Translations under genes and position numbers: made by a program
Sequence record: PZ445554.1
Reading direction: 5' to 3' (one strand)
Length of the DNA stretch: 64,000 nucleotides
Source of the DNA: a phage
The notes under the pieces: generated by a model
The model's database searches: none
Told to the model about the DNA's origin: nothing
Seen by the model: only the letters and a program-made list of their open reading frames with translations
In this document: positions 29,326 through 50,195 of the stretch, piece by piece
How positions within the stretch are numbered: position 1 is the stretch's first letter
Layout of the letters: each line of letters starts with the position of its first letter

Positions 29326-29712
29326 TTATTCGAGGGAAAGAAGATACTTACTCTGGTAAAACATTCCAGTAATATCATCTATCGTGCTTTGAATGGCTGG
29401 AGGCATTTCTTTATAAATGCTGTTAGATTGGTCTAGTATACGATCAATCATTTTAATTGTGTCGGTAGGAAGTTTACTGGCATTTGGAATTGAAGGTGTG
29501 TATTTTCTACCAGAATACCCCAAATATTGCTCACCAAATTTATCAATCAAATCTGGCAACTCGGAGAAAATAAAATCGTATGCTTTGTGTCTAGCATAAC
29601 TTTTAGTTTCAAAATGCGCAGAATGAAAATAAGCTTGTGCAGCCATTAATAAACCTAAGTATTCATCTGCCTTTGAAGGTTTTCCACTTTGTGAAAAGTC
29701 GCTGAATTTCAT
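29326..29712 (-). CDS. Hypothetical protein (position of T4 rI.-1)
   Basis: 128 aa ORF immediately downstream of rI. Confidence 0.55.
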
Positions 29713-30002
29713 TCAGTCTCCAATTTAATATTCATAATTCTAGCGTATGATTGTGCCATCTCCGCGCCTCGTTCTATACATTCAAAATCAGAAGAGCACG
29801 GGTCATTTTTATAGGTCGTTCTCATAAAACTATAGAATTGTTCAGACGATTCTACGCTTTTATTTTCAAAAAGCATATAAACGTGTCTAATACCAGATTC
29901 CATAAATTTATCAAAATGAGGATCGACATTCGCTTCAATCGGTGGAGATAAAGCAAACGCTAATCCTAGCATGGCAAATAGTGCCGTTGCTTTTAAGGCC
30001 AT
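29709..30002 (-). CDS. rI: Lysis inhibition regulator RI
   Basis: 97 aa with N-terminal signal-anchor MALKATALFAMLGLAFALSPP; recognised as T4 RI. Confidence 0.85.
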   Translation of the reverse strand: MALKATALFAMLGLAFALSPPIEANVDPHFDKFMESGIRHVYMLFENKSVESSEQFYSFMRTTYKNDPCSSDFECIERGAEMAQSYARIMNIKLETE

Positions 30003-31602: not shown

Positions 31603-31805
31603 GTCACCTTTAAGCAGTATTCTTCTACATGCTGTTTACGACCTTTCTTATCAATAAAGGTATATTCAACGAATGTTCCAATGTAGTCTTTATCTACATC
31701 ATGTGGACTATTAATTGGACATTTAGTACGGCAAATGCGTTCCCATTGACGAATAATTACTGCCTTATTCTTTGGGTCATACGGATGTGGATAATGTATA
31801 TTCAT
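31593..31805 (-). CDS. Small Cys/His-containing protein
   Basis: Start at first ATG MNIHYPHPYD. Confidence 0.45.
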   Translation of the reverse strand: MNIHYPHPYDPKNKAVIIRQWERICRTKCPINSPHDVDKDYIGTFVEYTFIDKKGRKQHVEEYCLKVTWL

Positions 31806-32269
31806 AATAACGGTTCCCAATCAACAATCACAATTTCTAATTTAGAGGAATATGTATCTAAAATCCCCTCAATAATATCCCAGTTCCCTTTACCTATGCC
31901 TGCACCAATCCTAGGCATATAGATTGTAGGTTTAATCAGTTTATTTTCACCAAACTCATTTAATTCTAACATACAATTCATTAAAGCGGAATACTCAAAA
32001 TTTGGCCCCGGTTGAAATTGAGTATAAAGATTGAAGCAGTAAGCTTTATGAGTCCTAAAGTATTTTTCATAGACTGAGTAAGAACCGAGTTTAGTTACAT
32101 CGCCCCATTCTGTCTGTAATTTATCAGCTTCCAAAATTTTAGGGAAAGCTTTGGTTAATTGACCCGCTACGCCTGAACCCATAGTATGAAAACAATTGCA
32201 TCCATGCGCAATATTTTTACCTTCAGCGAAAAGGGCGACAATATCGCCCTTGATATATTTTACAATCAT
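31802..32269 (-). CDS. Macro-domain-like protein (possible ADP-ribose binding or processing)
   Basis: 155 aa; GDIVALFAEGKNIAHGCN...MGSGVAG and IYMPRIGAGIGKG resemble macro-domain N- and C-terminal motifs; assignment by eye only. Confidence 0.45.
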   Translation of the reverse strand: MIVKYIKGDIVALFAEGKNIAHGCNCFHTMGSGVAGQLTKAFPKILEADKLQTEWGDVTKLGSYSVYEKYFRTHKAYCFNLYTQFQPGPNFEYSALMNCMLELNEFGENKLIKPTIYMPRIGAGIGKGNWDIIEGILDTYSSKLEIVIVDWEPLL

Positions 32270-32613
32270 CTAGTACTCAATCCTCGATTATAAGAATCTA
32301 CCAAACGGTCAACCATTGAATGACAAGCGGCTTTATCTTTCTCCTCCGCAACTGAGCATTCTAAGGTATTCCACTTTTTAGCATATCGTTTTAATAATGT
32401 ATCGTTTTTGTATCTGCTTGATTTATCTCTTTCTCCGTCTTTATATGCATATATTAATTTCTGTGCAAATTCAGCTTGGCATGCTTTATTTTTCCCACAA
32501 TAATCTGCCGCAGTGCGGTTTACATATTCTCTAATTTCAGTATATGATGTATCTGCTGATGCAGAAGCAGAAAATGAAATTAATCCTATACATAAAACCA
32601 AAATTTTAGTCAT
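32266..32613 (-). CDS. Secreted Cys-containing protein
   Basis: 115 aa with signal peptide MTKILVLCIGLISFSASASA. Confidence 0.5.
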   Translation of the reverse strand: MTKILVLCIGLISFSASASADTSYTEIREYVNRTAADYCGKNKACQAEFAQKLIYAYKDGERDKSSRYKNDTLLKRYAKKWNTLECSVAEEKDKAACHSMVDRLVDSYNRGLSTR

Positions 32614-33151
32614 TTACTATTTCCAAAAGTTTATTATTTTTAAGGTAATTAGCCTTTTCTAGGACTTCAGAAGCATATTTAGAACCTGCTTTAACATTCC
32701 ATCCCGAATTATAAGAGGATATTGCTTTTCTTATATCGCCCTTATGTATATTTAACCAATAAGAAAGTTCAATGTACGCCCAGGAAGCTGAATTGGATCG
32801 TTTATTCAACATTCTTTTTATTTCAGCATCAGTCATATTATAACCAAGTTCCTTAACTCTCGCTCGCATAGTAGGCAAATAATTTTGGAACATTCCATAA
32901 GCGTGATGCTTTGGTTTAGATTTTAAATTAACTCCGCCAGAGCTTTCTTGCCATAAAATGGCTGCCATTATATGACCTAATCCGCTCTTGTGGATATTTT
33001 TATGTGTTTTATATTTTCCATCCTTAGAAAATTGTTCCCCGAATTGATACGCGTAACGCATGTTATCGAGTTGGACATTACTGAAAGTATGCTCGGAGCT
33101 ATGTGCCATCATTGAAATGGCCAATAGACCAGCGAGTAGTGCTTTTCTCAT
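32606..33151 (-). CDS. Secreted lytic-transglycosylase-like (lysozyme-fold) protein
   Basis: Signal peptide MRKALLAGLLAISMMAHS; WQESSGG...AYGMFQ and YNSG motifs resemble SLT-domain catalytic motifs. Confidence 0.5.
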   Translation of the reverse strand: MRKALLAGLLAISMMAHSSEHTFSNVQLDNMRYAYQFGEQFSKDGKYKTHKNIHKSGLGHIMAAILWQESSGGVNLKSKPKHHAYGMFQNYLPTMRARVKELGYNMTDAEIKRMLNKRSNSASWAYIELSYWLNIHKGDIRKAISSYNSGWNVKAGSKYASEVLEKANYLKNNKLLEIVND

Positions 33152-33647: not shown

Positions 33648-33677
33648 ATTATACCACAGTCAAGAGGAAAAGTAAAC
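33648..33677 (-). promoter_or_regulatory. Early promoter upstream of regB
   Basis: GTTTAC-N18-TATAAT with TG extension. Confidence 0.65.
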
Positions 33678-36772: not shown

Positions 36773-37303
<531 letters not shown>

Positions 37304-43588: not shown

Positions 43589-43774
43589 TTATTCACCTTT
43601 AGAAATTTTATCCATAACAATAGCAATTAAACCAATTAAAAATGCTACTACAAGTGAAAACACATTTTCTGCTGTAGTCAATAATCCACATATAAATCCA
43701 ACAAACATTGAAAAACTAAAAGCGGAAGCAGAAATTGCAATAGCAACATTTCGAATTAATTCACAACGTTTCAT
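43589..43774 (-). CDS. Small membrane protein
   Basis: 61 aa, two hydrophobic helices; early promoter upstream. Confidence 0.5.
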   Translation of the reverse strand: MKRCELIRNVAIAISASAFSFSMFVGFICGLLTTAENVFSLVVAFLIGLIAIVMDKISKGE

Positions 43775-48484: not shown

Positions 48485-50195
48485 TAACCTTAATTGGTTT
48501 GTTGGTGTTGTTGAAGATAGAATGGACCCATTAAAATTAGGTCGTGTTCGTGTTCGTGTGGTTGGTCTGCATCCACCTCAAAGAGCACAAGGTGATGTAA
48601 TGGGTATTCCAACTGAAAAATTACCATGGATGTCAGTTATTCAACCTATAACTTCTGCAGCAATGTCTGGAATTGGAGGTTCCGTTACTGGACCGGTAGA
48701 AGGAACTAGAGTTTATGGTCATTTTTTAGACAAATGGAAAACTAACGGAATTGTCCTTGGCACGTATGGTGGAATAGTTCGCGAAAAACCGAATAGACTT
48801 GAAGGATTTTCTGACCCAACTGGTCAATATCCTAGACGTTTAGGAAATGATACTAACGTATTAAACCAAGGCGGAGAAGTAGGATATGATTCGTCTTCTA
48901 ACATTATCCAAGATAGTAACTTAGACACCGCAATAAATCCCGATGATAGACCGCTATCAGAAATTCCAACTGATGATAATCCAAATATGTCAATGGCTGA
49001 AATGCTTCGCCGTGATGAAGGATTAAGACTAAAAGTTTATTGGGATACAGAAGGATATCCAACAATTGGTATTGGTCATCTTATCATGAAGCAGCCAGTT
49101 CGTGATATGGCTCAAATTAATAAAGTTTTATCAAAACAAGTTGGTCGTGAAATTACTGGAAACCCAGGTTCTATTACAATGGAAGAAGCGACGACTTTAT
49201 TTGAACGTGATTTGGCTGATATGCAACGGGACATTAAATCACATTCTAAAGTAGGACCAGTCTGGCAAGCTGTCAACCGTTCTCGTCAAATGGCGTTAGA
49301 AAATATGGCATTTCAAATGGGTGTTGGCGGTGTAGCTAAATTTAACACAATGTTAACTGCTATGTTAGCCGGAGATTGGGAAAAAGCATATAAAGCCGGT
49401 CGTGATTCATTGTGGTATCAACAAACAAAAGGCCGTGCATCCCGTGTTACCATGATTATTCTTACGGGGAATTTGGAATCATATGGTGTTGAAGTGAAAA
49501 CCCCGGCTAGGTCTCTATCAGCAATGGCTGCTACTGTAGCTAAATCTTCTGACCCTGCTGACCCTCCTATTCCAAATGACTCGAGAATTTTATTCAAAGA
49601 ACCAGTTTCTTCATATAAAGGCGAATATCCTTATGTGCATACAATGGAAACTGAAAGCGGACATATTCAGGAATTTGATGATACTCCTGGGCAAGAACGA
49701 TACAGATTAGTTCATCCGACTGGAACTTATGAAGAAGTATCACCGTCAGGAAGAAGAACAAGAAAAACTGTCGATAATTTGTATGATATAACCAACGCTG
49801 ATGGTAATTTTTTGGTAGCCGGTGATAAAAAGACTAACGTCGGTGGATCAGAAATTTATTACAACATGGATAATCGTTTACATCAAATCGATGGAAGCAA
49901 TACAATATTTGTACGTGGCGATGAAACTAAGACAGTTGAAGGTAATGGAACTATCCTAGTTAAAGGTAATGTTACTATTGTAGTTGAAGGTAATGCTGAC
50001 ATCACAGTTAAAGGAGATGCTACCACTTTAGTTGAAGGTAATCAAACTAATACAGTAAATGGAAATCTTTCTTGGAAAGTTGCTGGGACAGTTGATTGGG
50101 ACGTTGGTGGTGATTGGACAGAAAAAATGGCATCTATGAGTTCTATTTCATCCGGTCAATACACAATTGATGGATCGAGGATTGACATTGGCTAA
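48468..50195 (+). CDS. 5: Baseplate hub and tail lysozyme gp5
   Basis: 575 aa; central T4-lysozyme-like domain (MAEMLRRDEGLRLKVYWDTEGYPTIGIGHL) and C-terminal VxGxxxxx beta-helix repeats. Confidence 0.92.
   Translation: MEMISNNLNWFVGVVEDRMDPLKLGRVRVRVVGLHPPQRAQGDVMGIPTEKLPWMSVIQPITSAAMSGIGGSVTGPVEGTRVYGHFLDKWKTNGIVLGTYGGIVREKPNRLEGFSDPTGQYPRRLGNDTNVLNQGGEVGYDSSSNIIQDSNLDTAINPDDRPLSEIPTDDNPNMSMAEMLRRDEGLRLKVYWDTEGYPTIGIGHLIMKQPVRDMAQINKVLSKQVGREITGNPGSITMEEATTLFERDLADMQRDIKSHSKVGPVWQAVNRSRQMALENMAFQMGVGGVAKFNTMLTAMLAGDWEKAYKAGRDSLWYQQTKGRASRVTMIILTGNLESYGVEVKTPARSLSAMAATVAKSSDPADPPIPNDSRILFKEPVSSYKGEYPYVHTMETESGHIQEFDDTPGQERYRLVHPTGTYEEVSPSGRRTRKTVDNLYDITNADGNFLVAGDKKTNVGGSEIYYNMDNRLHQIDGSNTIFVRGDETKTVEGNGTILVKGNVTIVVEGNADITVKGDATTLVEGNQTNTVNGNLSWKVAGTVDWDVGGDWTEKMASMSSISSGQYTIDGSRIDIG
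49930..50060 (+). repeat. 24-bp periodic coding repeats (gp5 beta-helix)
   Basis: Recurring GTTGAAGGTAAT / GTTAAAGG units encoding VxGxxxxx octapeptide repeats. Confidence 0.7.

Follow-up and report, generated by a model that had tools for sequence, protein, structure and literature searches.

The window analyzed here is a 64,000-nucleotide (nt) stretch of phage DNA (record PZ445554.1, Tequatrovirus), and our subject is a pair of adjacent genes on its minus strand, vs.1 and vs. An earlier note, made from the sequence alone, had described two adjacent open reading frames (ORFs) within positions 32266 to 33151. Both were found there, and both are named genes of phage T4, a fact that the note had overlooked. 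The product of the ORF at 32606..33151 is that of T4 vs.1 (ORF 61.4, a "hypothetical protein" in the T4 record) and the product of the ORF at 32266..32613 is that of T4 vs (ORF 60.9, "valyl-tRNA synthetase modifier"), each with 100% protein identity. Across the vs.1-vs region, nucleotide identity is 98.8% to T4 and 99.8% to Escherichia phage TadeuszReichstein. In T4 records regB lies upstream of the pair, and tk.4, tk.3 to tk.1, and tk lie downstream of it. Our reading, to which we give a probability of roughly 0.6, is that vs.1 and vs encode a co-exported periplasmic pair that remodels peptidoglycan, made early and separate from the late lysis system. The features of the two genes are as follows, with a slash marking each predicted cleavage site.

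32606..33151, minus strand: vs.1 coding sequence, 181 amino acids (aa); predicted Sec-exported GH23 / family-1-like lytic transglycosylase.

33098..33151, minus strand: predicted signal peptide of Vs.1, codons 1 to 18, MRKALLAGLLAISMMAHS/SEH; predicted cleavage after AHS.

32690..32971, minus strand: SLT catalytic region of vs.1, residues 61 to 154, with the Glu69 codon at 32945..32947, GMFQ at residues 86 to 89, and SYNSG at residues 146 to 150.

32606..32613, minus strand: overlap of vs.1 and vs, 8 nt, ATGACTAA; the vs start codon lies within the last codons and the stop codon of vs.1.

32266..32613, minus strand: vs coding sequence, 115 aa; predicted exported four-helix protein with four cysteines, annotated as a valyl-tRNA synthetase (ValRS) modifier.

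32554..32613, minus strand: predicted signal peptide of Vs, codons 1 to 20, MTKILVLCIGLISFSASASA/DTS; predicted cleavage before D21.

The SLT-domain prediction for vs.1 is already known. Similarity of vs.1 to SLT proteins was published by Nolan et al. in 2006, corroborating PSI-BLAST matches in the 2003 T4 genome review (Miller et al.), and this too had escaped the earlier note. Homologs are already labeled "Transglycosylase SLT domain-containing protein" in UniRef and in several GenBank records. Nolan et al. is the only functional work on vs.1 that we found in the searchable literature, which yielded no paper testing its activity, location, or role.

Vs.1 matches the Pfam SLT family (PF01464) over residues 61 to 154 (E = 1.4e-5; 25.1 bits, with a gathering cut-off of 21.3), and precomputed PF01464 hits are present on several of its homologs. 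The ES..G, AYGMFQ, and YNSG motifs that had been picked out of this ORF beforehand are all there, as WQESSGG (ES at 69-70), AYGMFQ (84-89), and SYNSG (146-150), and their key residues do not vary. We aligned 48 sequences, taking in Det7 gp70 (Ackermannviridae), the Felix-O1-like finno_46, and Aeromonas phage 31 Vs.1, and found E69, G86, Q89, N90, S146, Y147, N148, G150, Y159, and V163 to be invariant in all 48. S70 is kept in at least 90% of 44 T4-like homologs. An AlphaFold2 (AF2) model built from an alignment of 44 homologs had a mean predicted local distance difference test (pLDDT) score of 89.1 and put E69 at the end of a helix spanning residues 59 to 70. The best Foldseek matches of this model were MltD, a GH23 chitinase, and Slt, with modest E-values, and on the model Vs.1 is predicted to have a lysozyme-like GH23 fold. 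The description of this ORF as lytic-transglycosylase-like therefore stands on its Pfam match, its GH23-type model, and its motifs.

Aligned with E. coli Slt by hhalign, the Vs.1 alignment set E69 on E505 of the Slt precursor and GMFQ on GLMQ (E = 0.37; probability, 0.2); because these statistics are weak, we used the result only for the register of Glu69. We take E505 of the precursor to be the catalytic Glu478 of mature Slt70, allowing for a 27-residue signal. In g-type lysozymes an invariant Asp follows the catalytic Glu. Neither the 48-sequence alignment nor that of the 44 homologs contained an invariant Asp after Glu69, so the pattern is that of a lytic transglycosylase rather than a g-type lysozyme, although sequence cannot decide the chemistry. 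By such a mechanism, Vs.1 would most likely cut the peptidoglycan bond between N-acetylmuramic acid (MurNAc) and N-acetylglucosamine (GlcNAc), with Glu69 as the single acid/base and 1,6-anhydro-MurNAc as the product. Sequence searches of the PDB with Vs.1, both as a single sequence and as a profile, returned nothing significant, the best hit being cod g-type lysozyme (E = 0.48), and NCBIfam held no match for Vs.1 or Vs.

The window contains no paralog of vs.1. Endolysin gene e (36776..37267, minus strand) and the gp5 lysozyme domain (48987..49484, plus strand) are GH24 and are encoded by separate genes at their own coordinates, as the earlier note had said of the SLT-like ORF and these two enzymes. 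The Vs.1 homolog of Klebsiella phage Roth66 is labeled "C-type lysozyme/alpha-lactalbumin family protein", a label at odds with the GH23 assignment.

In both proteins the n-region is basic, about 13 uncharged residues form the hydrophobic core, and positions -3 and -1 are occupied by small residues. We screened the window's 140 ORFs of 60 aa or more with a signal-peptide filter, a crude heuristic of our own. It was passed by four: vs, vs.1, rI (29709..30002), and a 61-aa ORF (43589..43774). The rI product served as a positive control, being a known exported antiholin with a cleavable signal (PMC8385771). With only 4 of 140 ORFs passing, signal-like N termini are rare in the window, and two of them are adjacent. 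The 61-aa ORF (minus strand; MKRCELIRNVAIAISASAFSFSMFVGFICGLL...) is more likely a small membrane protein. The predicted mature Vs.1 has 163 residues (about 18.8 kDa) and the N-terminal peptide SEHTFSNVQLDNMR (residues 19 to 32); the predicted mature Vs has 95 aa, with a mass of 11.0 kDa against 13.1 kDa for the precursor, and the N-terminal peptide DTSYTEIR (residues 21 to 28).

We then looked at homologs of both proteins. Among 51 metagenomic IMG/VR loci encoding a Vs.1 relative (39 to 100% identity), which also served for the pairing counts given below, an equivalent of the Vs.1 signal was found in 49 ORF calls; for L061 and L071, the start codon used in the call was a different one. A signal peptide is likewise borne by Det7 gp70, finno_46, and Aeromonas phage 31 Vs.1, and every Vs homolog that we examined has an export signal. 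Mean identity to the query was 34% in the signal and 42% in the mature part for Vs homologs, and 47% and 63%, respectively, for Vs.1 homologs; the signals thus appear to be conserved in kind, not in sequence. In one Vs clade (L065, L066, L068, L069, L081, and P0096) the type I signal is replaced by a lipoprotein lipobox, (F/V)ALSGC, within the leader MKKLFVLL(V/I)V(F/V)ALSGC; in P0096 the lipobox is FALSGC. A switch from a type I to a type II signal is otherwise hard to explain, which argues that export itself is selected. No in-frame Met that would yield a signal-less form occurs before residue 100 of Vs.

The signal peptides that had been claimed for both ORFs are thus borne out by their n/h/c anatomy, by the filter (a heuristic, not SignalP), and by their retention in homologs. 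That of Vs is the more puzzling of the two, since it belongs to the annotated ValRS modifier. From these signals we infer translocation and cleavage of both proteins: Vs.1 would be exported by Sec, cleaved, and released as a soluble periplasmic protein of about 18.8 kDa with a GH23 (goose-lysozyme / Slt) fold, and Vs would likewise be exported by Sec and cleaved, becoming an 11-kDa periplasmic partner of Vs.1 that acts as a regulator, a stabilizer, or a targeting subunit.

Two further observations concern the Vs leader. In three Tequatrovirus-type loci (L036, L038, and L039) Vs is 113 aa long, with a 2-residue deletion in the c-region of the signal (SFSALA/DTS in place of SFSASASA/DTS) and an unchanged mature part, which is what cleavage of the leader would predict. 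For T4 Vs itself we rejected a lipoprotein signal (LVLC, residues 5 to 8): the Cys comes too early, the residue at -1 is Leu, and Cys8 is not conserved.

Vs matches phrog_1256 (E = 1.7e-39), and all of its database hits carry PF26829. Its AF2 model (pLDDT, 84.6) is a four-helix bundle (helices 22-39, 43-63, 70-86, and 91-112) with an unstructured signal region. Foldseek found no structural relative of the model in the PDB, and a PDB sequence search gave only noise. Four cysteines, C39, C45, C86, and C97, are invariant in all 12 database homologs, which also keep a signal-like N terminus. They sit at the turns between helices 1 and 2 and between helices 3 and 4, in loops whose lengths vary among homologs (x5-6 and x8-10). 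Because these lengths vary, disulfide-closed loops are favored over a fixed metal site, and mature Vs is probably stapled by two disulfides. Full-length, N-terminally His-tagged Vs was insoluble, forming inclusion bodies, in the E. coli cytoplasm (Zhang et al. 2021, PMC8076793); this fits an uncleaved signal and unformed disulfides, and is not proof of them. A search of 1.84 billion representative proteins with the Vs profile returned only 8 members, none hinting at function; the signal and the cysteines persist in two distant members. A tblastn search with T4 Vs gave 796 records, a figure that undercounts the family.

In all 51 IMG/VR loci, the vs.1 stop codon is overlapped or closely followed by a Vs-family ORF, whose start lies at -7 to +4 nt relative to it. 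This next ORF is 105 to 122 aa long, except where it is truncated to 85 aa (L050) or 65 aa (L068), and it has a signal peptide or lipobox and four or five cysteines. In 49 of the loci it matches the Vs profile (E = 4e-59 to 3e-4); the remaining two match phrog_1256 (E = 8e-20 and 1e-29). The reverse count gave a similar picture: among 27 Vs-centered viral loci, 26 were on contigs where vs.1 was found, and the 27th (L013) shows none simply for lack of sequence, its contig stopping about 1.4 kb upstream. Most of these T4-like phages share the syntenic block regB, vs.1, vs, tk.4. In the seven most distant loci (L079 to L085), vs.1 and vs stay together though regB and tk.4 are no longer detectable nearby. 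Relatives of Vs.1 were found by tblastn in 2046 phage records, from Straboviridae of many hosts, Ackermannviridae, and Felixounavirus. We did not find in the literature this fixed pairing of vs.1 and vs, the conservation of the Vs export signal and cysteines, or the lipobox clade.

In the window itself, the start of vs overlaps the end of vs.1 by 8 nt, an arrangement that suggests translational coupling of the two genes; we regard such coupling as probable. A candidate for a shared promoter lies upstream of regB.

33648..33676, minus strand: early-type promoter upstream of regB, with GTTTAC, a 17-nt spacing, and TG-n-TATAAT; 10 of 12 positions match, with an extended -10 element.

This was the best site in a promoter scan that returned 12 sites, against a shuffle mean of 11.8, and it is a consensus match only. 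It probably drives a transcript of regB, vs.1, vs, and tk.4. We found no terminator-like site on the coding strand between regB and tk.4 and, by eye, no convincing MotA-type middle promoter directly upstream of vs.1. Early transcription from this promoter would then be followed by coupled translation of vs.1 and vs. In published time-resolved omics, vs and vs.1 were both detected and classed as "early-RNA_middle-Protein" (PMC9697503 supplement); detection in the proteomics means that both proteins are made. The earlier placement of the two genes in the early region agrees with this RNA class and with the promoter match.

Published transposon data (HIDEN-SEQ, 10.1101/2025.11.20.689424) show that both genes are nonessential in lysogeny broth (LB), with insertions at 30 of 32 TA sites in vs and 46 of 52 in vs.1. 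In three data sheets, however, their mean insertion counts are about 10-fold below those of their neighbors. In one LB control, for example, mean reads were 26.6 for vs and 22.6 for vs.1, compared with 178.6 for regB, 289.6 for tk.4, and 652 for vs.3. The text of the preprint makes no comment on these low reads. The shared low counts fit a shared function or a mild shared fitness cost. When M9-glucose was compared with LB, vs was the most depleted gene of all (log2 fold change, -2.19; adjusted P = 0), and vs.1 had a log2 fold change of -0.87 (P = 0.0055; adjusted P = 0.155); tk.4 and vs.3 did not move and regB, if anything, went up. A clean vs knockout has been published to plate poorly on M9-glucose. 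We propose an accessory module that is dispensable in rich medium and whose contribution to fitness would be clearest in minimal medium, or in slow-growing, nutrient-poor hosts, where it would remodel the sacculus before, and independently of, the late holin/endolysin system (t, e, and the spanins).

The same data bear on the nature of the partnership. If Vs were a periplasmic inhibitor, an immunity-like brake that keeps Vs.1 latent until some trigger, loss of Vs would free Vs.1. Such a brake predicts the stronger effect of vs in M9 that was seen, and a small exported partner gene adjoins the gene for the muralytic enzyme in 51/51 loci. A pure toxin/brake model is nevertheless disfavored, because it predicts that loss of vs.1 is neutral, yet in LB insertions are equally underrepresented in the two genes (mean reads, 22.6 for vs.1 and 26.6 for vs, with neighbors at 180 to 650). 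The Vs fold is also unlike those of known lysozyme or transglycosylase inhibitors, or of Spackle, in the PDB, and the Vs.1 homologs of Det7, Felix-O1-like phages, and Aeromonas phage 31 manage without Vs. We regard a braking role as unlikely.

The T4 Vs of the literature, the "tau" factor that modifies host ValRS, is the same ORF as that annotated here. The target of tau is cytoplasmic, whereas the Vs family has SPI or SPII signals and conserved cysteines, which are marks of export; the signal peptide or lipobox in all members and the four conserved cysteines point away from a cytoplasmic location. Vs may instead be a Sec-exported, disulfide-bonded periplasmic partner of Vs.1, not primarily a ValRS modifier, in an early module that matters in nutrient-poor hosts. 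We put this forward tentatively, at somewhat less than even odds. The ValRS link would in that case be a misassigned ORF, a postlysis binding artifact, or a second function; as possible ways out of the conflict we see the wrong ORF, binding after cell breakage, two locations for Vs, and a misleading export signature. The mass of the purified ValRS factor, which we take to be about 10 kDa, is nearer to mature Vs (11.0 kDa) than to the 13.1-kDa precursor, so the factor, if it is Vs, would have been processed and hence exported.

A more doubtful view keeps Vs as a cytoplasmic, 10- to 13-kDa ValRS-binding factor whose N terminus is unused, or only partly used, for export, and makes Vs.1 an independent exported transglycosylase, with adjacency as inherited synteny. 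The ValRS-modifier annotation of Vs is universal in phage records, and papers citing Mueller and Marchin (1975, 1977), in the passages that mention that work, attribute ValRS binding to the 115-aa Vs product. Impairment of the vs knockout specifically in minimal medium suits a link to translation or amino acids, and regB, vs.1, vs, and tk.4 are broadly syntenic, with Vs.1 occurring without Vs in several lineages. Against a cytoplasmic Vs stand the export signal borne by every homolog, however remote, that could be detected, and its replacement by a lipobox in one clade, both expected only if export is selected. So do four cysteines kept between loops of variable length, the absence of an in-frame Met before residue 100 for a signal-less form, and the inclusion bodies formed on cytoplasmic expression (PMC8076793). 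Other ORFs of about 10 kDa lie near vs, namely vs.3 (92 aa) and vs.4 (88 aa).

Could Vs.1 be an auxiliary lysis enzyme, a secreted or signal-anchor-release (SAR) type endolysin acting late alongside endolysin E? Its muralytic domain is predicted to be exported, its Felix-O1-like homologs, encoded only a few genes away from the spanins, bear the annotation "putative lysin", and its PHROG cross-hits include endolysin and lytic tail protein families. We nonetheless consider a lysis role very unlikely. The RNA of vs.1 is early, its promoter match is of early type, and the gene is in no lysis cassette, whereas an endolysin is expressed late and is required for lysis. In the LB HIDEN-SEQ data, e, t, pseT.2, and pseT.3 (the last two encoding the spanins) have 0 to 2.5 mean reads, whereas vs.1 has many and is nonessential. 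A SAR anchor is itself unlikely, as the hydrophobic core, some 13 residues ahead of an AXS site, is short for a membrane anchor.

Early expression and a periplasmic target are also features of Imm and Spackle (Sp), and Vs.1 might act alongside them in superinfection control, for example through altered peptidoglycan that blocks later phages; the earlier note had offered superinfection control as one possibility and cell-wall remodeling as another. Timing and location are the sole support for this idea, which we judge highly improbable. Cleavage of glycan strands should ease penetration rather than hinder it, and the cost of insertions in vs and vs.1 is seen when mutants of a single library compete and varies with the medium.

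Several points weigh against a periplasmic peptidoglycan-remodeling pair. In vivo phenotypes on valS(ts) hosts argue for a cytoplasmic role of Vs. Adjacency alone is weak evidence of partnership, because the whole regB, vs.1, vs, tk.4 block is syntenic in most T4-like phages. Nor is Vs obligatory for Vs.1, since Aeromonas phage 31, Det7, and Felix-O1-like phages encode a Vs.1 homolog but no Vs. The hhalign and PDB sequence statistics for Vs.1 are weak, and the case for an enzyme leans on Pfam, the fold, and the motifs. The four cysteines of Vs could bind metal rather than form disulfides, and the low vs.1 counts could be explained by polarity on vs or by insertion bias. We found no localization data for either protein, and no measurements of activity or interaction, in the searchable literature. 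Finally, the vs product is reported to bind cytoplasmic ValRS (Mueller and Marchin 1975, 1977, as cited in PMC8076793).

Vs.1 can be set beside two groups of known enzymes. Its identity to the family-1 lytic transglycosylases (E. coli Slt70, MltC, MltD, and MltE and P. aeruginosa Slt and MltF; PF01464, GH23) is 13 to 19%. Unlike them, it consists of one small domain (163 mature residues) whose N-terminal helix-hairpin (approximately residues 20 to 58) is specific to its family, it lacks their superhelical, LysM, or lipid-anchor modules, and it is phage encoded and made early. The specialized transglycosylases of secretion and flagellar machines (EtgA of type III secretion systems, VirB1/P19 of type IV secretion systems) and the virion transglycosylases T7 gp16 and phiKZ gp144 are machine bound or virion borne. 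Vs.1, in contrast, carries a Sec signal; it is not known to be part of the virion or to serve any machine.

The pair as a whole recalls systems in which a muralytic enzyme likewise has a small exported or lipoprotein partner: Tse3-Tsi3 and Tge-Tgi of type VI secretion systems (T6SS), gp5-Spackle, and the host inhibitors Ivy, PliG, and MliC. No resemblance of Vs to Tsi3, Tgi, Spackle, Ivy, PliG, or MliC could be detected in sequence or in fold. Vs.1 and Vs are both made in the same cell, and a simple toxin/immunity scheme does not account for the transposon data.

The finding of vs.1 and vs in itself adds little, since both genes already had names in T4 and the domain prediction had appeared in print in 2003 and 2006. 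Vs.1 is, however, a predicted third muralytic enzyme of T4 besides E and gp5, kept in the large virulent phages of the Straboviridae, Ackermannviridae, and Felixounavirus. The minimal-medium phenotype of vs is at present read through a ValRS label that the Vs sequence contradicts. If Vs were placed in the cell and its link to Vs.1 settled, the outcome would be either a corrected textbook annotation or an unusual protein with two locations, and the same answer would give a function to a widespread phage peptidoglycan enzyme.

Outside the T4 group, Det7 gp70 (L006, 1953..2570) and finno_46 (L007, 2001..2549) are signal-bearing SLT proteins with the same invariant motifs. The Felix-O1-like Vs.1 gene adjoins rIIA and rIIB and is a few genes from the spanins. 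Aeromonas phage 31 (L005, 2105..2796) has regB, vs.1, and tk.4 and is missing Vs; there vs.1 is followed by a 75-aa ORF without a signal and then by a 146-aa ORF with a lipoprotein-like N terminus, MKKSIATLIAIGMYGC.

Many T4-like phages outside Tequatrovirus have a third exported ORF (phrog_4957; E = 1e-43 to 8e-53) between vs and tk.4. It encodes 130 to 147 aa, with a signal ending ...A/WE.., 2 cysteines, and no Pfam match, and it is lacking in T4 and in the window. It directly follows vs, and the locus of these phages encodes three clustered secreted proteins. Examples are as follows.

L004, 2363..2755: phrog_4957 ORF.

L079, 3842..4267: phrog_4957 ORF.

L085, 3770..4189: phrog_4957 ORF.

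L062, 3869..4303: phrog_4957 ORF.

L067, 3809..4225: phrog_4957 ORF.

Among the neighboring genes, regB of Roth66 (L004, 1036..1493) is split in its record into ORFs of 103 aa and 51 aa, possibly through a frameshift or a sequencing error. Directly downstream of vs in the window, tk.4 (31802..32269, minus strand) encodes a macro-domain protein (Pfam Macro, 27.7 bits), and T4 tk.4 has been identified as AdfM, an anti-DarTG2 factor (HIDEN-SEQ preprint, 10.1101/2025.11.20.689424).

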